Origin: Candidatus Adiutrix sp.
Lineage (GTDB): Bacteria > Desulfobacterota > Desulfarculia > Adiutricales > Adiutricaceae
Direction: 5' to 3'
Length of the DNA stretch: 64,000 nt
Assembly (NCBI GenBank): GCA_031553735.1
Contig: JAVBLB010000007.1
Coordinates: 30,348-94,347 of the forward strand
Shown in pieces: positions 9,324 through 49,715 of the stretch. Under the pieces are notes generated by a model. The model worked only from the letters and a program-made list of their open reading frames with translations. It was not told where the DNA came from and searched no databases. The position numbers were made by a program, and so were the translations under genes. Position 1 is the first letter of the stretch. Each line of letters opens with the position of its first letter.

Positions 9324-9325
9324 GT

Positions 9326-9688: not shown

Positions 9689-9723
9689 AACCAGTCCCCC
9701 TTTACATTGACCACCGGGCGGCC

Positions 9724-10092
9724 TTATTCGCCGACCCGGATGGCCGCCATTTCCCGCAGCAGAAAATCGGCGGCCCGCTCCAGCTCCCCGGCCGTCACCC
9801 GCGCCGCAGCCAGGCGGGTCAACAGCAACAGGCTATCCCCGGCCAGGCCGCAGGTCAGCGGAAAAGCCGGAGCCAATTCGAAACCCGTCCGGGCCAGGGC
9901 TCGCGGCAGGGTTTCCCGGTCATACGGCGGCAGCGGCGCGGCCAGATAGAGCCACAGCTCCTCCGTCCCCCGTTCCATAAAGAGCCGGCCCGCGCCCTCG
10001 ATCTCCAGGGCCAGCGGACCCCGGTCGGGCAGGGTCGCTGGTCCCAGGCCCAGGCGGCGGCTGAATTCGCTGATTTCCCGGTCCATGGTCAT
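9724..10092 (-). CDS. class-I T3SS chaperone, SycN-like (gatekeeper chaperone)
   Basis: 122-aa acidic protein. It follows the gatekeeper gene with a 4-nt overlap, as sycN does in Yersinia. Typical CesT/SycN-like length and pattern (..LALEIEGAGRLFMERGTEELWLYLAAPL..). Confidence 0.6.
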   Translation of the reverse strand: MTMDREISEFSRRLGLGPATLPDRGPLALEIEGAGRLFMERGTEELWLYLAAPLPPYDRETLPRALARTGFELAPAFPLTCGLAGDSLLLLTRLAAARVTAGELERAADFLLREMAAIRVGE

Positions 10093-33301: not shown

Positions 33302-35857
33302 ATGAAACGCGCGGAACGCCCTAAAAACGACGCCGACCCCCTCCGCCCCCCGGCGGGCGGCCTGGCTTCCAAGATCATCCTCTCCACCTGCCTGATGTTC
33401 GTCGTCGTCATCGTCGTCGTCGTGGCCATCAGCTATCGGATGTACAAAGACGCGTTCTACGACTACGGCAACGCGCTCTGCCTCAGCAGCAACGCCCTGG
33501 CCGCCTACGCCATCGACGGCGACCAGGTGCGGCATTTCGCCGAAACGCTCACCGTCGACGAGGAATACGAAAAATTCGCCGCCCGCCTCGACGAACTGTC
33601 CGGCAAGATCAACGCCAAGTATTTCTACATCCTCTTTGACAACGGCGTTCCCGGCATGTACACCTATATCTACGACGCCACCCACAGCCAGGAATTTCCG
33701 GGCGAAAAATACGCCCTGGGCCGGGAAGAGACCAAGGACGAATACGAGGGCGCGGCTGAGGTGCTGGCCACGGGCCGGGGTTTCGAAAAGGCGCTGTATT
33801 ACAACGACTATTACGGCGAACTGTATTACGCCTACGCCCCGATCTTCGATTCCCGGGGCCGGGTGGTGGCTTTCCTGGGCACCGACGCGGACATCACCCC
33901 GCTGCACGCCCAGGTGGCCCGCTACCGCCTGGTCATCACCGGGGTCTTGGTCCTGGCGATGTTGATCTTCGCGGTCATCGACTTCATCGTCATCCGGCGC
34001 ATGCTCTCCGGGCCCCTGACGGATATCGGCCGCCAGGCTCTGAGCCTGGCCCGGGGGGATCTGAACCTGAAAATTTCCGGGCGGATGCTCCAGCGGGGCG
34101 ATGAGATCGGCCGCCTGGCCGGGGCCTTTGACAGCATGGCCCGCAGCATCGCCGGGGTGGTTTTGGACATCGAGCACCTGATGAAGGCGGTCCGCGAAGG
34201 CCGCCTGGACGAACGCGCGGACAGTTCCGTCTACCAGGGGGATTACCACCGCATCATCTCCGGGGTCAACAATACCCTGGAGATGACCGGCCGCCATTTC
34301 GACGCCCTGCCGGAGGCCATCGCCTTTTTCAACGCCCGCTTCAACCTGCTGTACCGGAACCGAAACCTGCGCGCCCTGATGGATCTGCACGGTTTTGAAG
34401 CCGAGGGCTCCACCTTCCCGGGGGACATTTTGGCCGCCGGGGGGCAAGCCGGCCAGGCGGCCGACCTGGCCCGGCTGTTCGGCGGGGACCGGCGGGAGCC
34501 CCTGTTGCTGGACCTGCATCTGAAACCGCGGGACGGCGGCGAGCCGCGCCACTATGCGGCCGTGTTTCTCCGCGCGGATTCCGCCGCCGATTCGGCGGAA
34601 GAGGCGGATCAGGCCTGCGTCATGCTGGTGCTGACCGACATGACCCCGCTGGTCCGGGCCAAAAACGAGGCCGAAGCGGCCAGCCGGGCCAAGAGCGATT
34701 TTCTTTCCCGCATGAGCCATGAGATCCGCACCCCCATGAACGCCATCATCGGCCTGACCCAGTTGGCCTTCGGCTCGCGGGACTTCGAAAAGGTGGACGC
34801 CTCCCTCAGGCAGATCGAGGATTCGTCGTTGCATCTTCTGGGCATCATCAACGACATCCTGGATTTTTCCAAGATCGAGGCCGGCAAGATGACCCTGGAG
34901 GCCCGGGAGTTTTCGCTCCGGCAGAACACCGACTTCGTGATCTCCATGGTTGAATCGAAAGCCCTGGAGAAAAAGATCGACATCGCCCTCGGCGTGGTCG
35001 GGCTCGACCATGAATACGTGACCGCCGATTCGCTGCGGCTGAACCAGGTGCTGATCAACCTTTTGTCCAACGCCGTCAAGTTCTCCCCCGTCGGCGGCCG
35101 CATCAATCTGACCCTGGAGGAAGTCTCCCACGACGGGGGCCGAAGCGTCTTCCGCTACACCGTGCGGGACCAGGGCATCGGCATCGATCCCCGGCAGACC
35201 GGCCGGCTTTTCCAGCCCTTCGAACAGGCCGACGAAAGCGTCAGCCGCTCATACGGCGGCACCGGGCTCGGGCTGGTCATCGCCAGGAGCATCGTCGAAG
35301 CCATGGGCGGACAGATCGGGGTGGAGAGCCAGCCGGGGCGCGGCAGCGCGTTTTTCTTCACCATCGACGTCCCGGCCGCCGCTTCGCCCTCCCGGACGGA
35401 GCCGGCTCCGGGCCGGCCCAAAAAAACGATCCCCAAAAAGGATTTCTCCGGGCGCCGGGCCCTGATCGTGGACGACATCGACCTGAACCGGAAGATCGTG
35501 GTCGAACTCCTGGGCCGCAACGGCCTGGCTTCCGACGAAGCCGGCAACGGCCGGGAAGCCGTGGAGCTGTTCCAGCGCTCGCCCGTGGGATATTACGATT
35601 ACATCCTGATGGATATGCTGATGCCGGTCATGGACGGCTGCGAGGCCGCCCGGGCCATCCGGGCCCTCTCGCGGGCCGACGCGGCCACGGTGCGCATCGT
35701 CGCCATGACCGCCAACGTCATGAAGGAGGATGTGGACAAGGCCCTGGCCGCCGGCATGAACGCCCACGCCGGAAAGCCCGTGAACCTTCGCGAACTTTTG
35801 GAAGCCCTGGCCCCGGCCATCCCGGACGAGACCGCGACGGCTCCGGAAACCGACTGA
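33302..35857 (+). CDS. hybrid sensor histidine kinase (extracytoplasmic Cache-like domain, HAMP, HisKA, HATPase, receiver)
   Basis: 851 aa. H-box FLSRMSHEIRTPMNAI, N-box LNQVLINLLSNAVKF, G-boxes DQGIGI / GGTGLGLVI, and a receiver with LIVDDIDLN..DYILMDMLMPVMDG..AMTAN. Confidence 0.9.
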   Translation: MKRAERPKNDADPLRPPAGGLASKIILSTCLMFVVVIVVVVAISYRMYKDAFYDYGNALCLSSNALAAYAIDGDQVRHFAETLTVDEEYEKFAARLDELSGKINAKYFYILFDNGVPGMYTYIYDATHSQEFPGEKYALGREETKDEYEGAAEVLATGRGFEKALYYNDYYGELYYAYAPIFDSRGRVVAFLGTDADITPLHAQVARYRLVITGVLVLAMLIFAVIDFIVIRRMLSGPLTDIGRQALSLARGDLNLKISGRMLQRGDEIGRLAGAFDSMARSIAGVVLDIEHLMKAVREGRLDERADSSVYQGDYHRIISGVNNTLEMTGRHFDALPEAIAFFNARFNLLYRNRNLRALMDLHGFEAEGSTFPGDILAAGGQAGQAADLARLFGGDRREPLLLDLHLKPRDGGEPRHYAAVFLRADSAADSAEEADQACVMLVLTDMTPLVRAKNEAEAASRAKSDFLSRMSHEIRTPMNAIIGLTQLAFGSRDFEKVDASLRQIEDSSLHLLGIINDILDFSKIEAGKMTLEAREFSLRQNTDFVISMVESKALEKKIDIALGVVGLDHEYVTADSLRLNQVLINLLSNAVKFSPVGGRINLTLEEVSHDGGRSVFRYTVRDQGIGIDPRQTGRLFQPFEQADESVSRSYGGTGLGLVIARSIVEAMGGQIGVESQPGRGSAFFFTIDVPAAASPSRTEPAPGRPKKTIPKKDFSGRRALIVDDIDLNRKIVVELLGRNGLASDEAGNGREAVELFQRSPVGYYDYILMDMLMPVMDGCEAARAIRALSRADAATVRIVAMTANVMKEDVDKALAAGMNAHAGKPVNLRELLEALAPAIPDETATAPETD

Positions 35858-35876
35858 CCGGGGCCGGATGCGAAAA

Positions 35877-35924
35877 CCGCCCGACATCCGCGAGGGCAAG
35901 CCTCGCGGATGTCGGGCGGTTTTG
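35877..35924 (+). terminator. Rho-independent terminator after the hybrid kinase gene
   Basis: CCGCCCGACATCCGCGAGG - GCAAG - CCTCGCGGATGTCGGGCGG followed by TTTTG. This is a 19-bp perfect stem, 20 nt after the stop. Confidence 0.85.
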
Positions 35925-35927
35925 TAT

Positions 35928-36011
35928 AAGGTGAGAAGGCGATTCAGCCTGTTCCCGGACGACCAATTTTCGGGCAAACCGCTTTTCGGCGGCGCATTGC
36001 CCCATTCGGGG
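35928..36011 (+). repeat. dispersed intergenic repeat family B, copy
   Basis: AAGGTGAGAAGGCGATTCAGCCTGTTCCCGGACGACCAATTTTCGGGCAAACCGCTTTTCGGCGGCGCATTGCCCCATTCGGGG. Confidence 0.65.
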
Positions 36012-36012
36012 C

Positions 36013-37305
36013 TCAGGCCCAGATATCCCAGCCCAGCTTGGTGGCGAAGACCAGCCCCACCAGGCAGACGGTGGCGTTGAGTTCCCGGAACCGGCCGGCG
36101 GCGGTCTTCATCAGCAGATAGACCAGCCAGGCCACGGCCAGGCTGTCGGAAATCTTCCACGACAGGCCGATGAGCACCACCACCAAAATGGCCGGGAAGG
36201 ATTCGGTGGCGTCTTTGAAGTCGATGCGGGTCAGGGGCTGCAGCATATACCAGCCCACCACCACCAGAGCCGGGGCCACGGCGGCGAAGGGAATGGCCAG
36301 AAACAGGGGCGAACAGAACAGGGCCAGGACGAAGCAGAGGGCGCAGACCAGGGCGGTCAGGCCGGTGCGGCCGCCCACGGCCACCCCGGTGCCGCTCTCG
36401 CCGTAGGCGGTGTTGGGGGAAATGCCCAGGCAGCTGCTGACGACCAGGGCCAGGGAATCGGCCACGAAGGCCCGGCCCAGTTTGGGGCGATAGCGCGCGG
36501 CCTCCTCTTCGCCCATGATGCTGAACAGGCCCAGAAAGCCGCCGAGGCTGTCGAAAATGGCGATGAAAAGGAAAATCAGCACCACCGAAAAGAAATCGAG
36601 GCTCCACAGACGGGAGAAATCGAACTGAAAAAACAGCGGAGCCGGGCTGGGCGGAAGGCTGAGCAGGCCGCCCTCGGAGGGCCAGACCGTGACCCCCAGG
36701 GGAAGGCCAATGAGGGTGGACAAAACGATGCCGGCCAGGACCGCATAACGGAATTTCACGGCCAAAAGCAGCGCGGTGATGAACAGGCCGATGAAAACCA
36801 GCTTGACCGCCGGCTCGTGAAGATTCCCCAGGGCCGGGAGCCCGCTGGTGAAGACCACCGCGTGGCTGTTGATCAGGCCGATGCCGGCGATGAGCAGCCC
36901 CACCCCGCCGCAGACGGCGTATTGGAGCGACGGCGGGATGTCGCGCAGAATCTTTTCCCGCAGCGACGACAGCGACAGCAGGAAGAACAGAACGCCGGCC
37001 AAAAGAACCGCGGCCACGGCCTGGGGCCAGGTGTAGCCCAGGGTCAGGATGACCACGAAGCCGAAAATGGCGTTGATGCCCATGCCCGGGGCCACGGCGA
37101 ACGGCAGGTTGGCGACCAGGGCCATGATCAGCGAGCCGGCGATGGCGGCCAGGGCGGTGGTCGTGAACAGGGCCTCCGGCGGCGCCCCGGTGTGGGCCAG
37201 GATGGCCGGGTTGGCGGCCAGCACATAGACCATGGCACAGAAGGTGGTGAGGCCGGCGGTGATTTCCACCAGGGGGGTGGTGTGGTGTTCCTTGAGTTTG
37301 AACAT
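36013..37305 (-). CDS. NCS2/AzgA-family purine (adenine/guanine/hypoxanthine-type) permease
   Basis: 430 aa from the ATG at 37305 (RBS GAAGGAAG; the track start at 37326 is a TTG). MFKLKEHHTTPLVEITAGLTTFCAMVYVLAANPAIL.., ..NLPFAVAPGMGINA.., ..TAYGESGTGVAVGGRTGLTA.. align well with my memory of E. coli AdeP/GhxP-type permeases. Confidence 0.85.
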   Translation of the reverse strand: MFKLKEHHTTPLVEITAGLTTFCAMVYVLAANPAILAHTGAPPEALFTTTALAAIAGSLIMALVANLPFAVAPGMGINAIFGFVVILTLGYTWPQAVAAVLLAGVLFFLLSLSSLREKILRDIPPSLQYAVCGGVGLLIAGIGLINSHAVVFTSGLPALGNLHEPAVKLVFIGLFITALLLAVKFRYAVLAGIVLSTLIGLPLGVTVWPSEGGLLSLPPSPAPLFFQFDFSRLWSLDFFSVVLIFLFIAIFDSLGGFLGLFSIMGEEEAARYRPKLGRAFVADSLALVVSSCLGISPNTAYGESGTGVAVGGRTGLTALVCALCFVLALFCSPLFLAIPFAAVAPALVVVGWYMLQPLTRIDFKDATESFPAILVVVLIGLSWKISDSLAVAWLVYLLMKTAAGRFRELNATVCLVGLVFATKLGWDIWA

Positions 37306-37414
37306 GGCGTCTTCCTTCGATTTCAAAGCTGGTAATGATGGCCCTGTTCAGGTCAGCCGTATGGAACTGTCGCGGGCTCGCACGGGGGCGGGGTTTTCGT
37401 CATCCGGGAGGCCC

Positions 37415-37463
37415 CAAAAAACGAAAACCCCCGGACGCCGCGCACAGAACGGCTCTCCAGGGG
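37415..37463 (-). terminator. Rho-independent terminator = expression platform of the cobalamin riboswitch
   Basis: In the mRNA sense: CCCCTGGA - 20-nt loop - TCCGGGGG followed by TTTTCGTTTTTT. It lies between the aptamer and the permease start codon. Confidence 0.6.
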
Positions 37464-37529
37464 GTCTTTACCTTCAACCACCTTGAATCACAGGGCGCCG
37501 GCGACCGGCCAGGGGTCGCGCGGAGCGGG

Positions 37530-37691
37530 TTCATCCGGTCTTCTGGCTTACGGATCGACCGGCCGACCGGCCTTCCCGGGTCTAAACGACCCAGTGGCTG
37601 GCCTTTCCCCTTCAGGAAAAGCCGTCGGCGACCGTCCCCGTTCACAGCGGCGGGTCCGCCACGGAATTGCACCGTGTTCCGGGAGGATGAA
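37530..37691 (-). promoter_or_regulatory. cobalamin (B12) riboswitch aptamer
   Basis: In the mRNA sense: P1 TTCATCC...GGATGAA. Conserved core: CCCGGAA..GGTGCAATTCCGTGGCGGACCCGCCGCTGTGAACGGGGA..., AGCCACTGGG...CCCGGGAAGGC, and the B12 box AAGCCAGAAGACCGGA (consensus rAGYCMGgAgaCCkGCc). Confidence 0.85.
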
Positions 37692-37698
37692 CGTATTT

Positions 37699-37726
37699 AT
37701 TATATCACAGCCGCCGGATATCACAA
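37699..37726 (-). promoter_or_regulatory. sigma-70-type promoter for the riboswitch-permease transcript
   Basis: In the minus-strand sense: TTGTGA - 16 nt - TATAAT, with the -10 ending 8 nt before the P1 helix. Confidence 0.6.
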
Positions 37727-37766
37727 GGCCGTTTCTTCGCGTTCAGCAATTCTCAAAGTAAAAGAA

Positions 37767-37846
37767 ATGGGGCTCCGCCCCAAACCCCGCCAGGGGGAAT
37801 TTCCCCCTGGCCCCCACCGAAACCGCCCCAAAGCGGGCGGTTTCGG
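37767..37846 (-). repeat. modular GC-rich palindromic intergenic repeat (family C), copy 2 (inverted relative to copy 1)
   Basis: The reverse complement reads CCGAAACCGCCCGCTTTGGGGCGGTTTCGG..CCAGGGGGAAATTCCCCCTGG..GGGGTTTGGGGCGGAGCCCC. These are the same modules as 20293-20428, minus a roughly 60-nt insert. Confidence 0.7.
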
Positions 37847-38105
37847 AAGGGTCAGGGATGAAAATTGTCTCTTGGCCGGGATGGAACAGGAACCGCACTT
37901 CCACTTTGAGAATTGCCGCTTCGCGTTTTCCAACGAACCCGGCTTCGGCGGTGAAATCCCCCAGCGCCCCGCCAATTGTGGTATTATAAAAAAATTATAA
38001 TTTATGGGCCGGAATGAACCGGGCGTCTCCGAGGCCGGATTTTTTGTCCGACGCGGGGCGCGCGGGTCATCGACGCCCGACATCCGGTGGAATCGAGGTG
38101 CCCTC

Positions 38106-39995
38106 ATGCGCTTGGGAAAAGGCGTCATCGCCCTGGTCGTTCTGTTGCTGGGTCTTTCGGCGGGCTGCTCCCCCCAGGAGAAGGCGGCCACCGGTTACGA
38201 CCCGGCCGACGTGGCGGTCATCAACCGGATTCTGCGGGACAACGACGCCCAAAACGGCTTTCTGGCCTCCCTCGGCTGGAAAATCGACCAACCCGACACC
38301 TGGCTCGCCTTCACCGACGAAACCCAGGAGCCCCCCGAGCGGATCCGCCTCGCCTGGATAAACCGGAAGCTGGACGTTCTGGAATTTTGCAATGCCCGAC
38401 TGACCGGCGTCATGGACCTGACCGGACTGACCACGCCGCGAACAGTGCAGTTCTACGCCAACGACCTGGAAGAAGTCAAGGGCCTGGAAGCCATGACCAA
38501 GCTGGAAACATTGTGGGTCGCCCACAGCAGGGTCCACAGCCTGGGCGACCTCTCCGGCCTTATTTATCTGAGGGATTTGATTATCCTGGCCAACCGGCTG
38601 ACCACAGTCGGCGATTTAAGCGGCCTGACCCACCTGGTCAGGCTGGACGCCTCGTTCAACCGGGAACTGACGAGCCTCGGCGACCTTTCCAAACTGACCC
38701 GCATGAGGCAATTGAACGTCGCCGTCAACAAACTGACCACTCTGGGCGACCTCTCCGCCATGAAGGATCTGTACAGCCTGGACGTATCATACAACCGGTT
38801 GACCGACCTCGGCGACCTCGGCGGGCTGCTCCGCCTGACCGAATTGAACGCCTCCATAAACGGGCTGCAAAACCTGAGGCGGCTCGACAACCTGGTGAAT
38901 TTGAAACGCCTGAATCTCCGCCAGAACCGCCTGGCCGACATCGGTGATTTGAGCCGGCTGACCGCTCTTGAGTGCGTGGATGTAGGGTTCAACCGCCTGA
39001 CAACCCTTGGAGACCTGAAAGGCCTGACCCGGCTGACCCACCTTGGCGTCGGCCACAACCAACTGACCGACCTGGGAGAACTGGGGGCCGACGATACGCT
39101 GGAGGAATTGGTCCTGAGCCACAACCAACTGACCGCCCTGCCCGATTTGACCGGGATGAAGGCTTTGAAGAAGCTGGTCGTCGCTGATAATCCCCTGGAG
39201 CAGCCCGATCCGATGAAGCGGCTGCCGGAAGGGGTTCTGGAAGACTTCGCCTTTTCCGGCGATCAGTTCCCGGAGCTCAGTCTGGCCGCCAAGCCCCTGG
39301 AAAGCCTCAATGAACTTGAGGTGAGAAAGTCCGACCGGATGCGGGATTGGGAGTTATTGCGGAGAATGGTGGCGAACAAGCCCGCCGACTTCAAGTGGGG
39401 TCCCGTTGTGGATGCCAAGATCAAGCAAGGCCCCCCGCCTCGGCTGCTGCAACGCCTCGACCTGTACGGGCGGCCTCTTAAAACACTGAATCTCGCCGAC
39501 CATGTCGCCGTCGACCTGATCGACAATCCCGGCCCGGTGGATCGGCTGGTCATCGGCGACGGCGGATACACGCTGACCGAGCTGGTCCAGCTGCACCGGA
39601 AACTGCGGCCGGCCATTCTGGACGTTATCAGCAGCCAGCATCCCCTCCTGGGCGACCTGAAGAAGCCGTTGAAGGCCGGGACGGCTTATACCCTGAAGCA
39701 ACTCAGCCCGCGCCTGGCGGCCGACTATCAGGCGGCGGGCGATACCGTAACACTGGTCGCCTGCGACAAATCCGGCGGGTTCTTCTTCTGGACCGACGAC
39801 TCGCTCAGGGACGAGTTTCTGAAGGCCAAGACCGAGTTGAACGAAATCCGGGCCGTTGACGCCTATACCTTCGAAAACGGCCGGATCACCTTCAACCGGC
39901 CGGGGGAATACCGTCTGGTGGTCGCCAGCGATTATATCGACGGCTTCGAATCCCCCGTCTTCGTGGCCTATGAAGATGTCCTCCGCGTTGAATGA
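38106..39995 (+). CDS. leucine-rich-repeat lipoprotein (internalin-like 22-residue LRRs)
   Basis: I start at the ATG at 38106: MRLGKGVIALVVLLLGLSAGC (lipobox LSAGC). At least 10 consecutive 22-aa repeats of the type L..L.v..N.LT.LGDLs.Lt. (about 38.5-39.2 kb), then a roughly 270-aa non-repeat C-terminal domain. Confidence 0.8.
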   Translation: MRLGKGVIALVVLLLGLSAGCSPQEKAATGYDPADVAVINRILRDNDAQNGFLASLGWKIDQPDTWLAFTDETQEPPERIRLAWINRKLDVLEFCNARLTGVMDLTGLTTPRTVQFYANDLEEVKGLEAMTKLETLWVAHSRVHSLGDLSGLIYLRDLIILANRLTTVGDLSGLTHLVRLDASFNRELTSLGDLSKLTRMRQLNVAVNKLTTLGDLSAMKDLYSLDVSYNRLTDLGDLGGLLRLTELNASINGLQNLRRLDNLVNLKRLNLRQNRLADIGDLSRLTALECVDVGFNRLTTLGDLKGLTRLTHLGVGHNQLTDLGELGADDTLEELVLSHNQLTALPDLTGMKALKKLVVADNPLEQPDPMKRLPEGVLEDFAFSGDQFPELSLAAKPLESLNELEVRKSDRMRDWELLRRMVANKPADFKWGPVVDAKIKQGPPPRLLQRLDLYGRPLKTLNLADHVAVDLIDNPGPVDRLVIGDGGYTLTELVQLHRKLRPAILDVISSQHPLLGDLKKPLKAGTAYTLKQLSPRLAADYQAAGDTVTLVACDKSGGFFFWTDDSLRDEFLKAKTELNEIRAVDAYTFENGRITFNRPGEYRLVVASDYIDGFESPVFVAYEDVLRVE

Positions 39996-42436
39996 CGTGT
40001 GACCCCTTGGGTGCAACGACTGGCGGACGGAGGGCGGGGTTGAAAAAAAGCGCCGAAACCCGCAACGCCGCCGTCAGCTTCGGCCTTCTCTTGGCTGTTT
40101 TCCTGACGGCGGGGCTGCTGGCGGGCTGCCGGAGCGAAAACCGGCCGGACGCCGGGGCGGCGGCGTTTTCGCCCCCCTCTCCGGTCGAGGGCTCCGAGCC
40201 CACCGGCCCGGTCTTCGAGCACCCCTATTCCGGCGACGAGCTTGAGGCCGTCGTGACCTTCGACTACCTCGTCGGGCCCGAGGGCGTCTCGTTTCACGGC
40301 CGCGCCCTTGAAGGCGGCCGACCGGGAGTGGACACGACCTCGTTTGAAGTGCTCAATCCCCACGTCGGCTACGCCCGGGATAAGAACCAGGTCTATTTCC
40401 GCGACCGGGTCGTCGAGGGCGCGGACCCGGCCGGCTTTCGGGTGCTGGCCCAGCGGCCCGTGGAGCTGGAACCCCTCTGGCGCTGGCGGCTGGGCCTGGC
40501 CGATCAGCCCCGCGCGCTGTATGCCCGCACGGCCATCGCCACCGACGGCCGCCGCATCTTCTTCGACGACCGCCTGATCGACGGCCTGGACGCGTTCAGC
40601 TTCGTCTACCTGGGCCAGTATCATCACGACCCGGGCTATGACGAACACGGTCGGCGGAACCCCTTCACGCCCTATCACCAGAACGACGCCTTTCTCTATA
40701 TGGACCGTCGCGGCGTCTATCTGGAGGAAAGCGATCACGGCCGGCCCGGTCTCCGGACCGGCGAAAGGTTGGTGTACCCCCTGCCATGGATCCGCATCGA
40801 TATGAGCGATGACCCCCGGCCGGAGGCCTTGCGGCCGCTGGGTTCCCGCGGCCTGTACACCGACGGCGACAACGTCTTTTTCCGCCAGTTCCGGGTCTGC
40901 GAATCCAAAAGCTATCAACCGCCCGCCGCCCCGGACGGCCTGTACGGCCTCTGTGGCGGCGAGGCGGTTTTCCAGAACCGCCCGGTCGGCCGCAAGCTCC
41001 GGGATTTCCGCACCCCGGTCCCCGCCGCCGACTACCTGGTCGCCGCCGACCGGATTTTTTTCCGCGACCTGCCTCTGGAGCCGCCGGCCGACCCGGCGAC
41101 CTTCGAAATCCTGGAACCCCACCGCCACTATGCCCGCGACCGGCACCGGGTTTATTATCAGAACAACCCCCTGGCTTTCGATCGTTTCCTGGATCTCGGC
41201 GGCCGGGAGGCCGGCCCGGAGGTCGACCCGGCCACCTTCGAAGCCCTGGGGCGTGAAGGGCTTTACGGCCGCGACGCGAACTGCCTCTATTATCAGGCTA
41301 AGCAAATCGCCTGCGGCCGGGCGGCCGAATCGCGCCTGATCGACGAAGGCGAACAGGCCATCGCCGCCGACGGGATCTCAGCGTTTCACGGGCCGCACCG
41401 GGTCGAGGGTTCCGACGGCCCCAGCTATGAGCTGCTGGGCTACATTCAGGACGGGCCCTTTCGCTTCAGCCCCCTGACCCGGGACCGGCACCGGGTTTAC
41501 TGGCGGGGTCGGCCGGTGGAAGGAGCCGACCCGGCCGGTTTCGAGATCCTCAGTGTTTCCGGATATGGCCGCGACGCCCGGCACGTCTATTTCCGAGACC
41601 AACGGCTCGACCAGGCCGACCCGGCCGGCTTTCGGCCGGTGCCCCCGGCCGACGAAGCCGAATACCTTCTGAGCCTGCGGGACGGGCCGGTGGGCGGGGA
41701 CGGAAATCATTATTGGCGCGGCGACCGCCGGCTGTATGATCTGGAGTATCGCCTGACCGACCGCCGGCTGGATTACCCGGCCGGGGAATACACCGTCATG
41801 CTCGGCTGGGAGGGCCCCACCCGCCCCGAGCCAGCCGGGGAACGGGAACGGCGGGCGGCCCGGGCTTTTCTGGAGCGCGAGTTGGGGGGCGAGCTTCTCG
41901 AAGCCCTGACCCTGCCCGGGAGCGCCCCCGGGGCCAGCCGCCCGGCCCGGCTGCTTCTGGGGCTGGTCGCCGGGGCGACGGCCGAGAACCCGGCCGGCGG
42001 CCTCGGCGGGCTGCTTGAAGAAATCAGGGTCGACGGCCTGCGGGCGGGCACACTCACCAACCAGGCCGGCTCCGACCGCGGCGCGATGTTCGAACGCCTC
42101 CGAACCGTGGATTACGCCGGACTGGAGCCGCCGGGCGGGCCTTTTTATCTGCACTATTCCCTGGCCCACCGGCCCCGGCCCGGGGTCGAGGTCCACCAGT
42201 GGTTGAGCCGGGTTTCCCCGTTGGGCGGCGCCCCCGAGGCGGACGGCCTGTTTGCCGTCCACCTGGTCGTCTGGCCCCTGCCCGGGGGAGAAGCCCGGCC
42301 GGCCGCGCGGGCGGTGATGCTGAGTTTTCAAGAGGTGGGCTGCTGGGCCGAGCTCGAAGCCTTCATGGACGAGGCCGAAGCCCGCAAGCTGCGGCTGTGG
42401 GCGGTCCGGGGCGACGGGCCCCCGGCGGAGGAATGA
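39992..42436 (+). CDS. DKNYY-repeat lipoprotein
   Basis: 4-nt overlap with the LRR gene. Signal/lipobox ..LLLAVFLTAGLLAGC. An in-frame TTG at 40040 with a GGAGGG RBS is an alternative start. Repeated motifs: YARDKNQVYFRDRVVEGADPAGFRVL, YARDRHRVYYQNN, GRDANCLYYQ, TRDRHRVYWRGRPVEGADPAGFEIL, GRDARHVYFRDQRLDQADPAGFRPV. Confidence 0.7.
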   Translation: MTCDPLGATTGGRRAGLKKSAETRNAAVSFGLLLAVFLTAGLLAGCRSENRPDAGAAAFSPPSPVEGSEPTGPVFEHPYSGDELEAVVTFDYLVGPEGVSFHGRALEGGRPGVDTTSFEVLNPHVGYARDKNQVYFRDRVVEGADPAGFRVLAQRPVELEPLWRWRLGLADQPRALYARTAIATDGRRIFFDDRLIDGLDAFSFVYLGQYHHDPGYDEHGRRNPFTPYHQNDAFLYMDRRGVYLEESDHGRPGLRTGERLVYPLPWIRIDMSDDPRPEALRPLGSRGLYTDGDNVFFRQFRVCESKSYQPPAAPDGLYGLCGGEAVFQNRPVGRKLRDFRTPVPAADYLVAADRIFFRDLPLEPPADPATFEILEPHRHYARDRHRVYYQNNPLAFDRFLDLGGREAGPEVDPATFEALGREGLYGRDANCLYYQAKQIACGRAAESRLIDEGEQAIAADGISAFHGPHRVEGSDGPSYELLGYIQDGPFRFSPLTRDRHRVYWRGRPVEGADPAGFEILSVSGYGRDARHVYFRDQRLDQADPAGFRPVPPADEAEYLLSLRDGPVGGDGNHYWRGDRRLYDLEYRLTDRRLDYPAGEYTVMLGWEGPTRPEPAGERERRAARAFLERELGGELLEALTLPGSAPGASRPARLLLGLVAGATAENPAGGLGGLLEEIRVDGLRAGTLTNQAGSDRGAMFERLRTVDYAGLEPPGGPFYLHYSLAHRPRPGVEVHQWLSRVSPLGGAPEADGLFAVHLVVWPLPGGEARPAARAVMLSFQEVGCWAELEAFMDEAEARKLRLWAVRGDGPPAEE

Positions 42437-42987: not shown

Positions 42988-45024
42988 TTACCCGCCGGGC
43001 CGGTAACCGCCCGCCCGGGACGAGGCCGGGCGCGCTTCGGTGACCGCGAAGCTGAGGCTGGCCCCCAGTTCCATCACGTCGCCCTCCTCCGTTCTCACCC
43101 GGCGGTCCTCCCGGTGGACCGACACCTTCGCCTCCCCGGCTCCGGCGGTCAGGGCCAGGGTCCGCATGTAGCCGGCCATTTTTTCCTCGGCGATGGCCGA
43201 CAGCTCATCCACCGAGTCGCCGTCGATCATCTCGCTGGGGAGGAACAGCCGGAAGCCCGCGAAGTTGGGCAACGAGTGGATCTCCACCTTGCGCCGCAGA
43301 TAGATGGGCGCGGCGGCCGCGCCGACCGCGCTGGCCGCGTCATACACCGGCGGCACGATGATCGTGCCCTTCAGCCGACGGCCGAGAAACGGCGCCAGGA
43401 CGGCGGCCGGGGCCCCCAAAAGCAGAATGCTGTCCTCCACGCCGAGTTCGACCCGGATTTTGCCCTTTTTCCCGCGCCCCAAGGGGCCGCTGAAAACCCC
43501 GGTTTCGGAAAACTCTTCGGGCTGGTAGTGAACCCCGTCCTGATCGAAGCCGTGGCAGATGATTTCCTCGGCCAACAGGCGGCCGAATTCCTCCAGCACC
43601 CGGAAAGCCACCTCCTCAGCGGTCAGCCGCAGCGAGCGGCCCAGAATTTCCGCCCCGATGCAGGCGGCTTCCCGCGAGCCCTGCCCATACAGCCCCAAAA
43701 CCGCCATGGCGTCGGTGGGAGTGAAGGCCGAAACCAGAATCGCCGGGTGCTTCAGGGCGTTCACCCCGCTGAAGCGCTGACCCCGCTGAAAGCAGGTTTC
43801 CGCATGGGTGGCCAGGGCCAGCGGAGTCTCCCGCTCCAAAGCCCGCAACAGCACGATTTCATCGTCGTTCAACCCGGAATCGGGGGGCGACCCGGGCAAA
43901 AAGAAGCACCCGGCCAGGGTGGCGCCCAGGCCCGATCCCCGCTGGTATTTCAGGGTCCGAACCACCTGGGGCCACTCATCCGCCAGGCGGCACAGGGGCA
44001 GAACCCGGCGCGGGCCCAGCGTCAGGTCGCCGGCTTTGCTCATGGTCACCAGGCTGTCGCCGCCCAGGCCCCGGGTGCGGGTCTCGACGGCCACGGTCAT
44101 GGTGTTCCAGGCGCCGACCCGGGCCCCGTTGGGATTGACCGCCGGGCGGCCATCCCGCACCAGGGCCAGATCCGTGGTCGTCCCGCCGATGTCCAGCACC
44201 CAGAGGTCTTTCTCCCCGGGGGTCAAGAGGCCCCGCCCCAGCGTTTTCGCGCCGACGAGGCTGGCGGCCGGCCCCGAAACCACGGTCTCGATGGGCCTGT
44301 CGCGGGCCCAGTCTTCGCTGACCAGGCTGCCGTCCCCTTTGACCACCATCAGCCGGGCCTTGAATCCGCAGCCTCTCGCCGCTTTTTTGACCGCCTCCAG
44401 AAGACGATTGATGACGCCGACCAGCCCGGCGTTCAGCGCGGCCGTGGCCGCCCGGCGAACGGCGTCGTATTCGCCCGTGAGATCCCGGCCCAGGGTGATC
44501 GGCTTTTGGGAAAGACTCCGAATGATGCGCGAGGCGGCCAATTCATGGGCGGGATTCTTGACGCTGAAAAAACCGGAGACGGCCCAGGCGGACACGTGCG
44601 GATCCAGCGTCCCGACCGCCGCCTCGATCGCTTCTTCGTCCAGGGGCTCTTCTTCCGTGCCGTAATAATCGTGGCTGCCGCGCACGAAGACGGATTCCAC
44701 CAGGGGCAGCTTCTGGACCAGCTGGCGCACGGCCTCCTGGTCGGCGTCATAACCCATCATGATCAGGCCCACCCGGCTGCTCACCCCTTCGGCGATGGCG
44801 TTGGTGGCCAGGGTCGTGGACAGGCTGATCTGGGTCACGGCCTCCCGCCCCCCGGGCCAATCCCGGGCGGCCAGCTTTTCCAGGGCCCGGGCGATGCCCA
44901 CGGAGAGGTCGTGGTGGGTGGTTTCGGCCTTGGCATACGCCGCGACCGTTCTGGTTTGCGGGTTATAGATCACCGCGTCGGTGTGGGTTCCCCCGGTATC
45001 GAGTCCTAAAGTCAAAGCGTTCAT
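42988..45024 (-). CDS. hydantoinase/oxoprolinase-family (ASKHA-fold) ATPase
   Basis: 678 aa. N-terminus MNALTLGLDTGGTHTDAVIYNPQT.., ..ISLSTTLATNAIAEG.., ..VLDIGGTTTDLALV.. (two actin-like phosphate-binding motifs). Confidence 0.7.
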   Translation of the reverse strand: MNALTLGLDTGGTHTDAVIYNPQTRTVAAYAKAETTHHDLSVGIARALEKLAARDWPGGREAVTQISLSTTLATNAIAEGVSSRVGLIMMGYDADQEAVRQLVQKLPLVESVFVRGSHDYYGTEEEPLDEEAIEAAVGTLDPHVSAWAVSGFFSVKNPAHELAASRIIRSLSQKPITLGRDLTGEYDAVRRAATAALNAGLVGVINRLLEAVKKAARGCGFKARLMVVKGDGSLVSEDWARDRPIETVVSGPAASLVGAKTLGRGLLTPGEKDLWVLDIGGTTTDLALVRDGRPAVNPNGARVGAWNTMTVAVETRTRGLGGDSLVTMSKAGDLTLGPRRVLPLCRLADEWPQVVRTLKYQRGSGLGATLAGCFFLPGSPPDSGLNDDEIVLLRALERETPLALATHAETCFQRGQRFSGVNALKHPAILVSAFTPTDAMAVLGLYGQGSREAACIGAEILGRSLRLTAEEVAFRVLEEFGRLLAEEIICHGFDQDGVHYQPEEFSETGVFSGPLGRGKKGKIRVELGVEDSILLLGAPAAVLAPFLGRRLKGTIIVPPVYDAASAVGAAAAPIYLRRKVEIHSLPNFAGFRLFLPSEMIDGDSVDELSAIAEEKMAGYMRTLALTAGAGEAKVSVHREDRRVRTEEGDVMELGASLSFAVTEARPASSRAGGYRPGG

Positions 45025-45057
45025 ATGGCACCTGAAAATGATGGGGAGTCGGCGGAA

Positions 45058-45732
45058 TTACATGCCGATGTTTTCGCCCTGATAGGGGGCTTTTCGGGAA
45101 GGGCAGCCCTCTTTGGTGCAGAGCTGGCAGTTGTGATATTTCTCCGCCGTCTCAAAATACACCCCGGAAACGCTCTTGTTCGGGCTCATCAGGAGGCTTG
45201 GCAGAAGGGTCACCCCGATTTGCCCCGGCAGTTCGCCCAGAAGCTCGAAAAGGGGTTTCTGCTCGGTGATCGGCCATTCCCGGGGCAGGGAGCCGGGGTT
45301 CATGGCCGATACCAGCGGCAGGCCATAGCGTTCGGTGATGAAATCCTCCAACTGCCGCACGCCCTGCCGCAAAGCCATCAACATGACCTCATCGGCCATG
45401 AACTGTTCCAGCCCGGTCAGGCCGGCCGTCCATTCGGCCAGTTCCCGCCCGCAGGTGACCACGTGGGGAAAGGCCACCTTCAAGCCGGCCAGTTGGCGGG
45501 TCATCAGCCCGCTTTGAAAGACCACCTCGCCGAATCTGGTGTTTTCGTCATCCAGAATTTCCGGCGCCATCACCATGAAAGCCGCCTTCGGCCGGGCCAG
45601 GCGCCCGGCGGTGGCCAGAATGTCGCCCAGGAGTCTTTCGGCCTTGGTCCCGGGCCTGACTCTGAGATGCCCGGCCACTTCCCGTTCGTCATAATGGACC
45701 TGGAGATCATCCAGGATCATGAATTCCGTCAT
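45058..45732 (-). CDS. methionine-synthase (MetH) activation-domain-like protein with C-terminal Cys motif
   Basis: 224 aa. The overall pattern (..FGEVVFQSGLMTRQL.., ..MNPGSLPREWPITEQKPLFELL.., ..SVSGVYFET..) matches my recollection of 'vitamin B12-dependent methionine synthase activation region' proteins found next to corrinoid methyltransferases. It ends CQLCTKEGC. Confidence 0.45.
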   Translation of the reverse strand: MTEFMILDDLQVHYDEREVAGHLRVRPGTKAERLLGDILATAGRLARPKAAFMVMAPEILDDENTRFGEVVFQSGLMTRQLAGLKVAFPHVVTCGRELAEWTAGLTGLEQFMADEVMLMALRQGVRQLEDFITERYGLPLVSAMNPGSLPREWPITEQKPLFELLGELPGQIGVTLLPSLLMSPNKSVSGVYFETAEKYHNCQLCTKEGCPSRKAPYQGENIGM

Positions 45733-45781
45733 TGTATATCTCCCAATCCAAATGGTTGCGATATCCGGCCGGGCCCGGAAC

Positions 45782-46534
45782 TCAGATAAGAGCGCAGGGA
45801 CCGACGCCGCACTTTCCGCAGACGTCGAGGGTCCAATTAAGGCTCCGGGTATACGGCGACAGGTTCAGCAGCTTTTTGTTGCAGACGTGGCGGTCGAATT
45901 CGTCCGGGCCGTCGCCCAAGGCTTTGGGCGGGCAGTGCTTCAGGCAATACCGGCAGCTTCCGTTCTTGAAATACAGGCACAAATCTTCCGTCGGGCGGGC
46001 GGAGGGCGGCAGTTCCTCCGCCAGGAACACGGTGCCGTAACGGCCCGCGCCGCCGACCGGGGTGATCAGCATCCGGTTGAGGCCGAAACGGCCCAGGCCG
46101 GCCACAAAGGCCGCGCTGCGGTGGGACCAGTAGGCCCGGAGCGTCGTTTCGTCATAATTATTGGTCGAATTGACCATACCGGCTTTGACGCCCCGGGCTT
46201 CCATCATGGCCACCAGGTCCCCGGCAATTTCATCGATCAGGTTGTTGGCGTGGAGGTAGGAATCCACCCATTCCCGGGCCGGGACGACCGGGTCCCGGCG
46301 GTTGGCCTCGACGACCTTTTTGGAAAAAGGCAGAAAAAACGAAACCAGGGTTTTCACTTCGGGCAAAACGTCTTCCGGCCGCCAATGGTGAGGCCCGATG
46401 ACGTCTTTGAACGTCGAATACAGGGGATCGGCGGCCGAGGAAAACCCGACCAGGGGCTGGCGGTAGTAATCCTCCTGATTGGCCCCGGCCACTTTCCGGG
46501 TGATGAACTCGACAATTTCGCCGGACAATGACAT
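45782..46534 (-). CDS. QueG/RdhA-like iron-sulfur protein (two 4Fe-4S-type Cys motifs)
   Basis: 250 aa. C-x7-CRYCLKHCP and CGKCGVGPC motifs in the C-terminal third. The N-terminal part resembles the epoxyqueuosine-reductase-like fold (..WSHRSAAFVAGLGRFGLN..). This is a moderate-confidence family guess. Confidence 0.45.
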   Translation of the reverse strand: MSLSGEIVEFITRKVAGANQEDYYRQPLVGFSSAADPLYSTFKDVIGPHHWRPEDVLPEVKTLVSFFLPFSKKVVEANRRDPVVPAREWVDSYLHANNLIDEIAGDLVAMMEARGVKAGMVNSTNNYDETTLRAYWSHRSAAFVAGLGRFGLNRMLITPVGGAGRYGTVFLAEELPPSARPTEDLCLYFKNGSCRYCLKHCPPKALGDGPDEFDRHVCNKKLLNLSPYTRSLNWTLDVCGKCGVGPCALI

Positions 46535-46595
46535 GATGAACCCCCCGGTTGTTTTTTCGGCCGTTGCGGCCGCGCCTTCGGATCGGGCCGCGCGT

Positions 46596-48005
46596 TCAGT
46601 CGCCTTCGGCCTTCAAAGTTTTCTCCAACAGCGGATCGATATCGGGCCGCCGGTATTGCTCCAGATAGATATCCACCCTGATGCGGGCCAGGTCCACGGC
46701 CTGGGGGCGGCCCCTCCGCTTCCAGCGCCCGTACGAATCCCGGTTGAAGACCAGCGGGTCATGGAATTCCGTTCGGAAGCGTTTGAAAGTCAAAGGATGG
46801 TTCAGAAAGTTGCCCTTGGGCCCCACTTCCTTGATCGCCTCCAGGGCCAGATCGTCCTCGCCGCACCTGACAGGCCGCAGAAAATTATCCACATATTCGA
46901 TGAGTTCGGCGTCCAGAATCATTTTTTCCAGGCTGCCGCCCATGAAACTGCCCAGGTGGCCGCAGCCCGGCAAGAGATTCACCGGCTGGGCGGCGGCGCT
47001 GAAAAATTGCATCATCGCCTCGGCCCCGGCCTGAAAATCGACGACGGGCGAATCGGTATGGCTGACGTCGCCCCGCGACAAAAGGCCGTAATAACGCGCC
47101 AACTGGCAGCCGGCCAACTCCACCAGCCGGTTTTCCGGGCCACCGTAAACCGAGCCCAGGCTCTTCATGTCGCTGTGCCCGCCCATGGCGCCGTAAAACA
47201 CGGGGTGCCCCGGGGAGGCCAACTGGGACAGGACGATCGCCCCCAGATTCTCGCAATTCTGCATCAACACGGTCGCGGCCAGGGAACAGGGCGCGGTGCT
47301 GCCGGCGGCCGGCATCGAGGTGACGTTGAAGGCCACCCCCGCCCGGCAGAAGGCGACGAGATTGCGGGAGGCCTCTTCGGTCATATACAGAGGCGAAATG
47401 ACGTTGACCGACGATAGGCCGTAACTGCGCCCGATCAGGGCCGATTCCCGCATCTCTTCCGCCGTTTTGCCGAACGCCAGGCCCAGGAGCCGCACGTCGT
47501 CGGCGACCATCAGGTAATAAGGTTTATCCTGGTGGAGGATCTGGTTGGCCATCATCCAGGCGTGAACGCGCTTGGCTTTGATGTCCTGCGGCATGAACAG
47601 GGGACGGCAGAGCTTCATCTGCGGGAGAGCCTGCACCAGTTGGGCCGTCCGGATGAAATCCGCGGCGGTCGGCGCGGCCAGGCGCCCTTGATGATCGACC
47701 ACATAGACGGCCCCGCTGCCGGGAGCGATGACCCGGCTGTCGAGGGAAAAATCGACGTCGTGCTCCGGGTTCCGGGCCAGCAGGGTGAATTCGCTCGGCA
47801 CCGTCTCCAGGCATCTTTCAATGATGCGGTCGGTGAAATAGACCGTATCGCCCGAAGTTTTCAGCCCGTGGGCCTTGAAAACCGCCAGCGCCTCCGCCGA
47901 GCCGAAGGCCATCCCGGTTTCCCGGAGTATTTCCAGGCTGGCGGTGTGAATTCGCCCCAACTGTCTCGGGTCGAGCACGCCGGAGTGGCTGGCGAAAAAA
48001 CTCAT
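46596..48005 (-). CDS. MttB-superfamily (trimethylamine methyltransferase-like, non-pyrrolysine) methyltransferase
   Basis: 469 aa from the ATG at 48003-48005 (RBS GAAGGGGG). ..LDPRQLGRIHTASLEILRETGMAF.., ..PEHDVDFSLD.., ..NVISPLYMTEE... The ORF is uninterrupted with no in-frame TAG. Confidence 0.8.
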   Translation of the reverse strand: MSFFASHSGVLDPRQLGRIHTASLEILRETGMAFGSAEALAVFKAHGLKTSGDTVYFTDRIIERCLETVPSEFTLLARNPEHDVDFSLDSRVIAPGSGAVYVVDHQGRLAAPTAADFIRTAQLVQALPQMKLCRPLFMPQDIKAKRVHAWMMANQILHQDKPYYLMVADDVRLLGLAFGKTAEEMRESALIGRSYGLSSVNVISPLYMTEEASRNLVAFCRAGVAFNVTSMPAAGSTAPCSLAATVLMQNCENLGAIVLSQLASPGHPVFYGAMGGHSDMKSLGSVYGGPENRLVELAGCQLARYYGLLSRGDVSHTDSPVVDFQAGAEAMMQFFSAAAQPVNLLPGCGHLGSFMGGSLEKMILDAELIEYVDNFLRPVRCGEDDLALEAIKEVGPKGNFLNHPLTFKRFRTEFHDPLVFNRDSYGRWKRRGRPQAVDLARIRVDIYLEQYRRPDIDPLLEKTLKAEGD

Positions 48006-48066
48006 AGAGCCCCCTTCGTCGATCAGGAGAAAAAGCTGGAACCGGTATAGCGACGGCAATCTAGAG

Positions 48067-48082
48067 TGCAAGCGGCATACCA
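48067..48082 (-). promoter_or_regulatory. sigma-54 (-24/-12) promoter candidate for the MttB-family operon
   Basis: The reverse complement reads TGGTATGCCGCTTGCA, with GG-N10-GC spacing and a TTGCA -12 element, about 65 nt upstream of the ATG. An AT-rich tract (48100-48240) separates it from the divergent EBP gene. Confidence 0.55.
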
Positions 48083-48269
48083 TTTAAATTCAGAATATTT
48101 TCAATTAATATCAAGTAGATACCTGTGCGGCCCGGCAAAAGAAAAACAAAAAGAAAACAAAACGAAAAATAATTTGCTCTTTTTTTTCGCTTTTGCTCAC
48201 GGTTGAAGTGACAAGAAGGCGGCGGATTGCTATAATCAGGCGGTCTCGATACGAAAAAGGCCATTTTTT

Positions 48270-49715
48270 ATGGATTCCGAAAAAACGATGATCCAAGCCG
48301 TGGTCGACGGGCCGGTCTCCCTGCGGGCTTTCTTTGAAAGCCTGCCGCAGGGCGTCGTCATTACCGACGCGGACCACCGGATTGTCTTCTGCAACCGGAG
48401 GCAATTGGAACGTGACGGTTTGGGCGAGGCGGAGGTTCTGGGGCGGTCGATATTCGACCTCCACCCGGGCGACGGCTGGCCGTCGGCGTTGTCGGCGCCC
48501 GCCGACGGGTCTTTCGGAGAACCCGCCCCGCGCACCTGGACCGGACGCGGCCGAAGCGGCCGGCCCATCGCCGTCTCCATCACCCGCATCCCCCTGCCGG
48601 GCGTCGGGGCCATCTATGTGATCGACGACCGGCCCAGGGCCGATTCGGCCGGGGAGGAAAAACGCCGCCAGGCTCCGAAAGAGGCGACGGGCGGGCGGGC
48701 GTTCAACAAGCTGATCGGGCGGAGTCCGGGGTTCCTGAAAGCGGTCGGCTTCGGGGAAAGCGCCGCCTCGTCCCCTTCGCCGGTGCTTTTGGCCGGGGAA
48801 ACGGGGACCGGCAAGGAGATGTTCGCCCGGGGCATCCATGAGCGGTCGCCCCGGGCCAACCGGAATTTCGTGGCCATCAACTGCGCGGCCATTCCCCAGG
48901 AACTCCTGGAAGGCCTGTTGTTCGGAACCACTCGGGGCGCCTACACCGGGGCCACTGAAAAGCCGGGACTCTTCGAAGAAGCCAACTTCGGCACCCTGTT
49001 TCTGGACGAATTGGATTCCATGCCCCTGAAGCTGCAACCCAAGCTCCTGCGGGTTCTTCAGGACCGCCGGATCAGGCGGGTCGGCTCGGCCCGCGAACTG
49101 GAACTCGACATAAAAATCATCAGCGCCATCAGCGGCTCGCCGGAAGAAGTCCTCAGGAGCGGACGGTTGAGGGCCGACCTCTTCTACCGCCTGGGAGTCA
49201 TGATCATCAAGCTGCCGCCGCTGAGGGAGCGGCCCGAGGACCTGCCGCTTCTGGTCGAACACTTCGCCGGCAAATATAACACCCTTCTGGGGCGCCGGGT
49301 GCGGGCCTTTTCCCCGGAAGTCATGGAGGCTTTCCAGGCCTATACCTGGCCGGGCAACGTCCGGGAGCTGGAGCACATCATCGAGGCCATTTTCAACATC
49401 GCGGACCGGGAGGAAGTGATCACGCCCAAGATGCTGCCCGACCACTTCAGCCTCTCGTCCAAAATAACCCTGGGCGGGCAAACGGCCGGGAGCCGCGACG
49501 AGAACCGCGATTTTCCGCCGGCGGACCCCGACGACCGCGGCGACCGGCCCGGCCTGGTCACCCTGAAAGACCGGGAGAGGGAGATGATCTCCCGGGCGCT
49601 GCTCATGACCGGCGGCAACGTGGCCCAGGCGGCCAAAATGCTGGATATTTCCCGGCAGCTTCTGGTCTACAAGATGAAAAAACACCAGTTGACCCGGGAG
49701 CATTTCAAGAAATGA
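48270..49715 (+). CDS. sigma-54 enhancer-binding protein with N-terminal PAS domain (GAYTGA variant)
   Basis: 481 aa. PAS-like N-terminus (..GVVITDADHRIVFCNRRQLERDG..), GETGTGKE, TRGAYTGA, TLFLDELDSM, WPGNVRELEH, and the HTH GNVAQAAKMLDISRQLLVYKMKKHQL. Confidence 0.85.
   Translation: MDSEKTMIQAVVDGPVSLRAFFESLPQGVVITDADHRIVFCNRRQLERDGLGEAEVLGRSIFDLHPGDGWPSALSAPADGSFGEPAPRTWTGRGRSGRPIAVSITRIPLPGVGAIYVIDDRPRADSAGEEKRRQAPKEATGGRAFNKLIGRSPGFLKAVGFGESAASSPSPVLLAGETGTGKEMFARGIHERSPRANRNFVAINCAAIPQELLEGLLFGTTRGAYTGATEKPGLFEEANFGTLFLDELDSMPLKLQPKLLRVLQDRRIRRVGSARELELDIKIISAISGSPEEVLRSGRLRADLFYRLGVMIIKLPPLRERPEDLPLLVEHFAGKYNTLLGRRVRAFSPEVMEAFQAYTWPGNVRELEHIIEAIFNIADREEVITPKMLPDHFSLSSKITLGGQTAGSRDENRDFPPADPDDRGDRPGLVTLKDREREMISRALLMTGGNVAQAAKMLDISRQLLVYKMKKHQLTREHFKK

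Follow-up and report, generated by a model that had tools for sequence, protein, structure and literature searches.

Why would a gene for a purine-type permease be placed behind a cobalamin riboswitch? The question is raised by a locus in a 64,000-nucleotide stretch of DNA from Candidatus Adiutrix sp. (contig JAVBLB010000007.1; this whole stretch is called the window below), where the minus strand carries a sigma-70-type promoter, a cobalamin aptamer, an intrinsic terminator and the gene for an AzgA-like NCS2 nucleobase permease. An earlier interpretation made from the letters alone (the sequence-only reading) had described this arrangement and suggested that the permease imports a base for the lower ligand of cobamides. 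We followed this up by computational analysis. The reading that we prefer is that the locus is a one-gene unit repressed by cobamide, whose product imports a purine-like base, probably a cobamide lower-ligand base, and we put the probability of this reading at roughly 0.4.

The promoter named in the sequence-only reading, TTGTGA-16-TATAAT, is present at 37726..37699 on the minus strand. It matches 10 of 12 consensus positions, has a TG extended -10 and is the sole promoter-like site in 35700-38100, where shuffled sequences predict 0.4. Transcription likely starts just 5' of the P1 helix of the aptamer, at about 37694-37690. In an alignment of 25 leaders, the relatives keep TTGACA ... TAnnnT at the same spacing to P1 (columns 7-40). 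The aptamer had also been proposed before, and a search with the covariance model of Rfam family RF00174 bore this out: the match at 37680..37538 (minus strand) scored 79.7 bits against a gathering score of 31.5 (E 5.5e-18), and it was the single Rfam match across the 64-kb window. With P1 included, this RF00174-type aptamer, which has a B12 box and a P6 extension, spans 37529..37692 on the minus strand, as delimited by the model match and the fold. P1, formed by GUUCAUCC (37692-37685) paired with GGAUGAAC (37536-37529), lies outside the local model match and forms in minimum free energy (MFE) folds. The window aptamer contains the B12 box AAGCCAGAAGACCGG, and the core GCCACUG...GGGAAGGC is represented by GCCACUGGG...CCCGGGAAGGC. 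The B12 box and the core strings are invariant or nearly so across the 25 aligned leaders.

An intrinsic terminator (37416..37468, minus strand) makes up the expression platform, with an interrupted G+C-rich hairpin at 37468-37424 followed by UUUUCGUUUUUU at 37427-37416. The sequence-only reading had given this terminator an 8-bp stem; the terminator is real, and it is stronger than was described, with an interrupted stem of about 17 bp, a 7-nt loop and a free energy of -25.8 kcal/mol. Because of the bulges and the 7-nt loop, a simple terminator scan missed the expression-platform terminator of the window. In the MFE structure of the 283-nt leader, the terminator hairpin coexists with the aptamer. 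Its 5' arm opens with the motif AAAGACCCC, which is conserved in the relatives. In the longer form (GGU)AAAGACCCC (window 37469-37460), the motif is kept in nearly all orthologous leaders (the window and L001-L055), while the remainder of the hairpin is variable, and it resembles the GAAGACC of the B12 box. Within window 37377-37427 (minus strand), ACGAAAACCCC, located directly 3' of the terminator U-tract, can base-pair with GGGGGUUUUCGU, made up of the terminator 3' arm and the U-tract; in MFE folds of full-length transcripts the two form an alternative hairpin, which is terminator-like when the plus strand is read. The segment from the terminator to the start codon, read from the sequence, occupies 37306..37415 on the minus strand and contains a Shine-Dalgarno-like GAAGGAAG at 37318-37311. 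The ATG lies 108 nt beyond the end of the U-tract, close to the earlier estimate of about 110 nt. At the level of sequence, the earlier regulatory assignment holds: an AzgA/NCS2 purine-type permease is under a cobalamin riboswitch whose expression platform is of the terminator type, with cobamide binding and repression as its predicted properties.

The permease gene occupies 36013..37305 on the minus strand, from the ATG at 37305 to the stop codon ending at 36013, and encodes 430 amino acids. Its product gave a full-length match to PF00860 (Xan_ur_permease; E 3e-41, residues 14-385). Over the full length, identity was 39% to the E. coli adenine permease AdeP and 33% to the guanine/hypoxanthine permease GhxP, in agreement with the similarity to such permeases noted earlier. 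Among relatives with solved structures, the adenine/cytokinin carriers AZG1 and AZG2 of Arabidopsis matched with E values of 4e-44 and 3e-32, respectively. By homology the window protein is an AzgA-like NCS2 nucleobase carrier, for which transport of adenine, guanine or hypoxanthine is predicted. An exact-sequence look-up of the window permease returned no record. The closest database relatives, 50-82% identical and annotated merely as NCS2 or "AGZA family" permeases, came from Ca. Adiutrix metagenome-assembled genomes (MAGs), the sequenced strain "Deltaproteobacteria bacterium Smac51" (CP026657.1) and many termite-gut Deltaproteobacteria MAGs. The gene is monocistronic, because a bidirectional terminator with a 20-bp stem (35876-35920) is common to it and to a convergent gene for a hybrid histidine kinase (open reading frame [ORF] 33302-35857, plus strand). 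On its upstream side, the unit is flanked by a divergent gene for a leucine-rich-repeat (LRR) protein.

The sequence-only reading had proposed conservation of the linkage in orthologs as its own test, and the outcome was plainly in its favour. Sampling one genome per species yielded 80 loci, every one of which was scanned with Rfam. Loci whose permease was at least 49% identical to the window protein were taken as in-clade, namely the window, L001-L036, L050, L055, L071 and the metagenome loci L095-L097; three of them, cut by contig ends, were excluded, leaving 40 assessable loci. A cobalamin riboswitch was located directly upstream and on the same strand in 33 of the 40, whereas Rfam found a cobalamin riboswitch in none of the 41 scanned outgroup loci. 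The 33 comprise the window and 31 loci above the RF00174 gathering score (32/40; 38.7-81.6 bits in the 31 orthologous leaders) and L019, in which the 3' half of the aptamer is at the contig edge. The in-clade permeases are 49-82% identical and belong to MAGs from many termite hosts. Thirteen clostridial outgroup loci (35-37% identity) carried the purine riboswitch RF00167 at the same position, and the Rfam search for RF00167 in the window and the in-clade loci gave no match. In the nearest outgroups, the Planctomycetes-like P0102, P0106 and P0109 and the Paludibacter locus P0110, the permease gene abuts the upstream gene and a riboswitch does not fit. A metagenome scan with less specific patterns yielded at least three in-clade loci, none of which had a riboswitch; the remaining 77 among the matches listed were distant homologs, in which an nhmmer leader profile found zero matches, a result that, with a clade-trained profile, is weaker evidence than the Rfam scans.

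In a neighbour-joining tree, every B12-linked permease fell into one clade, with the riboswitch-less copies nested inside it, which indicates that these copies are secondary losses. Compensatory double changes occurred in 19 of 33 consensus pairs in 25 aligned orthologous leaders. In P1, six of the seven pairs had pair-preserving double changes, each in 3-7 sequences. A hairpin followed by a U-run was present between the aptamer and the start codon in about 22 of 32 orthologous leaders, and its 5' arm nearly always opened with the AAAGACCCC motif. In at least two termite-gut MAGs, tandem paralogs on one contig each have their own cobalamin riboswitch (L082, 9657-11290 and 16172-17827; L025, 2158-3787 and 3939-4348), so the riboswitch and the permease duplicate as a whole unit. 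Together, the retention in 33 of 40 loci, the helix covariation, the conserved promoter and the co-duplication with the gene indicate that the riboswitch and permease are a cis-regulatory unit under purifying selection. In L084, a second paralog located 360 nt downstream has its own promoter-like region and no riboswitch.

For pocket mapping, the window protein was aligned to the adenine-bound AZG2 structure (PMC11992111). The contacts with the purine ring are kept, namely Y27 (AZG2 Y56), M75 (M138), Y301 (F396, pi-stacking) and E303 (E398), and transmembrane helix (TM) 3 carries an AdeP-like GMGxN that includes N78. Given these ring contacts, the substrate should be a flat purine-like heterocycle. 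The clade also has signatures of its own, SPNT(T/A)Y(G/A/C)ESG in TM10 and D(G/S)L(A/G)GF in TM8. Clade-specific residues, defined by at least 85% conservation within the clade against no more than 10% outside it, are concentrated in the elements that bind the substrate; they comprise A255, G256 (Thr in 90% of the outgroups), L260, F261 and M264 in TM8, F280 in TM9, and P297 (AZG2 T392), N298 and G305 in TM10. Position 302, which corresponds to AZG2 V397, is G, A or C clade-wide. In AZG2, T392 touches the N6 side chain of zeatin and the V397 backbone binds the ring. AZG1 and AZG2, the best structural homologs, thus agree with the window protein in the residues holding the purine ring (Tyr in TM1, Met in TM3, and an aromatic residue and Glu in TM10), whereas D345, T392 and V397 of AZG2 (N6 side-chain contacts and backbone-binding residue) correspond to A249, P297 and G302; the bacterial protein is also shorter and lacks the plant loops. 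The family-wide motif 4, [FY]-[IV]-E-S-x-[AST]-G-x2-[EAV]-G-G-[RKA]-T-G (PMC11527162), is departed from in the window protein, which reads Y-G-E-S-G-T-G: position 2 is G, A or C in the clade and not I or V, position 5 is G, and the rest is kept. The pocket positions are remodelled relative to every canonical purine carrier examined, the sister group included, which hints at an altered specificity. Loss of the first Asp of TM8 (AzgA D339 / AZG1 D390) was considered as a diagnostic character and dropped, since that position is occupied by Asn in E. coli AdeP and by Ala in GhxP.

We propose that the transcript from the sigma-70 promoter begins with the classical cobalamin aptamer and that, with a cobamide bound (most likely an adenosyl-cobamide), the G+C-rich hairpin and U-tract would terminate transcription ahead of the permease gene. 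Under cobamide scarcity, read-through would allow the AzgA-like carrier, expected to be proton-coupled and of the elevator type, to be made. The OFF direction assumed here is that of known cobalamin riboswitches. The carrier would then import a free purine-like base needed when the cell builds its own cobamide; this base would be the lower ligand (adenine, a substituted purine or a benzimidazole) and would be attached by CobT-type enzymes in nucleotide-loop assembly. We favour import of a lower-ligand base because of the logic of the B12 regulon, the parallel with CytX and the remodelled pocket. CytX is an NCS1 cytosine-permease homolog that is found under thiamin pyrophosphate riboswitches and is predicted to import the thiamin precursor hydroxymethylpyrimidine. 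Like the window permease, it is a nucleobase-permease homolog in a vitamin riboswitch regulon, presumably importing a heterocyclic precursor; it differs in its family (NCS1 versus NCS2), its riboswitch and its vitamin. As to the B12 regulon, B12 riboswitches mainly control cobamide synthesis and uptake, including the bza genes for the lower ligand and the alpha-ribazole transporter CblT. A 2021 review lists cblTS under uptake of 5,6-dimethylbenzimidazole (DMB) (PMC8123684). We tentatively suggest that the clade may contain the first dedicated importers of free lower-ligand bases, either benzimidazoles (DMB or 5-hydroxybenzimidazole) or substituted purines (2-methyladenine), induced through the B12 riboswitch under cobamide scarcity. 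The sequence-only reading had also considered salvage of a corrinoid precursor. Cobinamide or another such precursor is an unlikely substrate in view of its size, since the AzgA fold takes single nucleobase-sized ligands.

The earlier proposal that a lower-ligand base or a benzimidazole is imported thus remains plausible and has become the leading hypothesis, but several findings weigh against it. The neighbourhoods inspected were those of L081-L084, the downstream ORFs of nine loci, and the flanks of the Neisseria locus described below, L002 and L004. The search for cobT, cobS, cobU, cobC, bza and btu genes reached about 10 kb from the permease in L081-L084 and 2.5 kb in the other loci examined, and it found none, so that the functional link to cobamides is carried by the riboswitch alone. 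Adenine is present in cells, and importing it for pseudocobalamin would seem superfluous. The main purine contacts are retained, and more than a third of the residues are identical to those of E. coli AdeP. To look for an anti-terminator, the 5' arm of the terminator (AAAGACCCC...) was paired with the aptamer in 19 leaders; the best duplexes were no better than those of shuffled arms, and the partner was inconsistent. In addition, seven in-clade copies (L002, L095-L097, L018, L050 and L007) lack the riboswitch and show the pocket signature of the clade; this points to a generally useful substrate, e.g., an ordinary purine. Among these, L002 lies behind a prepilin-peptidase gene and L095-L097 lie behind housekeeping genes or a tRNA, while L018 has a group II intron domain upstream (RF00029, 159-245, 40.9 bits), whose insertion may have displaced the leader. 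L007, at 2501-3796 of the Neisseria sp. Ec49-e6-T10 chromosome (NZ_CP152375.1), is a 67%-identical clade permease with an AT-rich upstream region and was apparently transferred horizontally from the Adiutrix lineage minus the regulatory RNA. Its neighbours are a DSP phosphatase-like gene on one side and three SCPU (spore coat U / fimbrial) genes on the other.

Some of these findings would be explained if the permease were an ordinary salvage transporter for adenine, hypoxanthine or guanine, induced by corrinoid limitation through the same riboswitch mechanism, an explanation that we regard as somewhat unlikely. When corrinoid is low, the use of methyl-tetrahydrofolate (methyl-THF) by MetH and by the corrinoid methyltransferases of the Wood-Ljungdahl pathway would stall, folate would be trapped, and the purine steps that depend on 10-formyl-THF would be starved; the permease would then be a B12-independent bypass, as with metE or nrdDG. 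The methyl-folate trap is established physiology, and the kept purine contacts, the AdeP-like TM3, the similarity to AdeP and the lack of cob neighbours all suit a salvage carrier. The riboswitch-less copies and the acquisition by Neisseria likewise fit a generally useful purine importer. The lineage consists of corrinoid-dependent acetogens (PMC7608387). In one lineage of termite Deltaproteobacteria MAGs, the permease is followed by a gene for a CCA-adding-type nucleotidyltransferase and then by purA, a weak pointer to purine salvage as synteny of a single lineage. A phosphoribosyltransferase gene convergent to the Smac51 permease copy was taken up as a further hint of this kind and dropped, since it encodes PyrR. 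Against salvage, an unchanged purine specificity fits poorly with the clade-specific pocket replacements, which depart from a family-wide motif, and plain purine-uptake relatives sit under purine riboswitches. A strict trap is also doubtful in acetogens, where formyl-THF formation precedes the corrinoid step and methylene-THF reductase can work in both directions. Moreover, a B12 riboswitch over purine salvage as an indirect compensation is not known, and none was found in the literature searched.

The same remodelled pocket could accommodate another B12-related heterocycle, such as a 7-deazaguanine base (queuine or preQ1) that would bypass the cobalamin-dependent epoxyqueuosine reductase QueG under B12 scarcity, or another purine analogue that is metabolised by way of a corrinoid enzyme; this we consider improbable. 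In L005, an Adiutrix MAG, a 237-aa Fe-S protein with weak similarity to QueG and reductive dehalogenases is encoded 33 nt downstream of the permease (3829-4539, plus strand). QueG and the reductive dehalogenases are B12-dependent enzyme families, but this neighbour occurs at a single locus and scores below the family cut-offs. Carriers of the AzgA family, whose name comes from 8-azaguanine, do accept guanine analogues, and uptake of purine analogues is known for YjcD (PMC3809563). The window and the other loci contain no pointer to queuosine. The known importers of 7-deazapurines belong to other families. Still less credible, in our estimation very much so, is that the riboswitch is a relic, an insulator or terminator for the upstream region, or a small RNA, with permease expression effectively independent of B12. 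The seven in-clade genes that do without it, the 108-nt leader after the terminator and the outcome of the anti-terminator search could be read in this way. Retention in 33 of 40 loci despite protein divergence of up to about 50%, compensatory changes in P1 and other helices, the conserved promoter immediately upstream and the co-duplication of riboswitch and gene speak against it.

Import of a lower-ligand base under cobamide repression can be set beside known systems. With the classical RF00174 OFF switches (btu, cob, cbi, bza), the window leader shares the aptamer architecture, the B12 box, the P6 extension, the intrinsic terminator and the location ahead of a transporter gene, in its 5' leader, whereas the gene itself, for an AzgA-like NCS2 permease, differs, and the duplex search did not identify an anti-terminator in the window. 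The B12-regulated transporters listed in a 2021 review include btuB, btuFCD, cbrT/UV, cblT, cbiMNQO, NiCoT and others, and AzgA-like NCS2 permeases are not among them (PMC8123684). The Firmicutes PbuG/PbuO type and E. coli AdeP/GhxP are PF00860 homologs (35-39% identity) with the same core purine contacts, and the former type also shares the monocistronic layout with a riboswitch and a terminator in the leader. Unlike them, the window unit has a cobalamin aptamer in place of a purine aptamer and the TM8/TM10 pocket changes, and its signal is a cofactor and not the presumed substrate. CblT/CblS, the alpha-ribazole transporter and kinase of Firmicutes, has in common with our proposal the B12-repressed import of a part of the lower ligand from the environment. 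CblT, however, belongs to an unrelated protein family, moves a riboside and is paired with a kinase, whereas the window carrier stands alone and a free base would need CobT.

The literature that we searched does not link a cobalamin riboswitch with an NCS2/AzgA or purine permease, in keeping with the sequence-only reading, which knew of no such permease as a described member of the regulon; this is a limited claim, as the coverage was incomplete and curated regulon databases lay outside it. What is new is the pairing and its clade-wide conservation, the component parts being of known kinds. The cobamide lower ligand decides which microbes can use the cofactor, and many bacteria incorporate lower-ligand bases from the environment. 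A transporter for free lower-ligand bases did not turn up in the literature searched, and to our knowledge CblT, for alpha-ribazole, is the only known importer related to the lower ligand. A riboswitch-defined, clade-wide candidate makes the entry of free lower-ligand bases directly testable. If lower-ligand import is true, termite-gut acetogens would be able to finish or adapt their corrinoid with bases that neighbours release, which would be guided biosynthesis in nature. If purine salvage is true, the unit would be the first in which a B12 riboswitch makes purine salvage depend on the corrinoid supply, as a bacterial counterpart of the methyl-folate trap. On either reading, homologous carriers have swapped their sensor RNA, with a purine riboswitch in Clostridia and a cobalamin riboswitch here.

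The remaining observations concern the wider window. A cluster for a corrinoid-dependent methyltransferase lies at 42988-48083 on the minus strand, 6-10 kb from the permease. It includes, by family match, an MttB-family methyltransferase (46596-48083, minus strand; possibly of the non-Pyl type), a 250-aa protein without a family match that is possibly the corrinoid protein, a 224-aa protein matching the activation domain of MetH, and a 678-aa hydantoinase/ASKHA-like protein that is possibly a reductive activase. A divergent sigma-54 activator is encoded beside the cluster at 48270-49715. The Rfam scan of the 64-kb window found no riboswitch upstream of this cluster. Judged by its gene content, the MttB-family cluster shows corrinoid use in the organism; published work describes Ca. 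Adiutrix as a reductive acetogen (PMC7608387).

Type III secretion genes are located at 3402-11216 (minus strand) and 38004-42436 (plus strand) and encode an FlhA/SctV-like FHIPEP protein, FlhB/SctU and FliR/SctT. A bona fide SctW (LcrE/TyeA) gatekeeper, scoring above the NCBIfam cut-off, was also found, and the predicted gene set indicates an injectisome and not a flagellum. Beside the riboswitch, the window encodes the LRR protein mentioned above (663 aa), which resembles internalins and LRR effectors, as well as a DKNYY protein of 814 aa. An injectisome together with an LRR protein is of note in a relative of protist endosymbionts.

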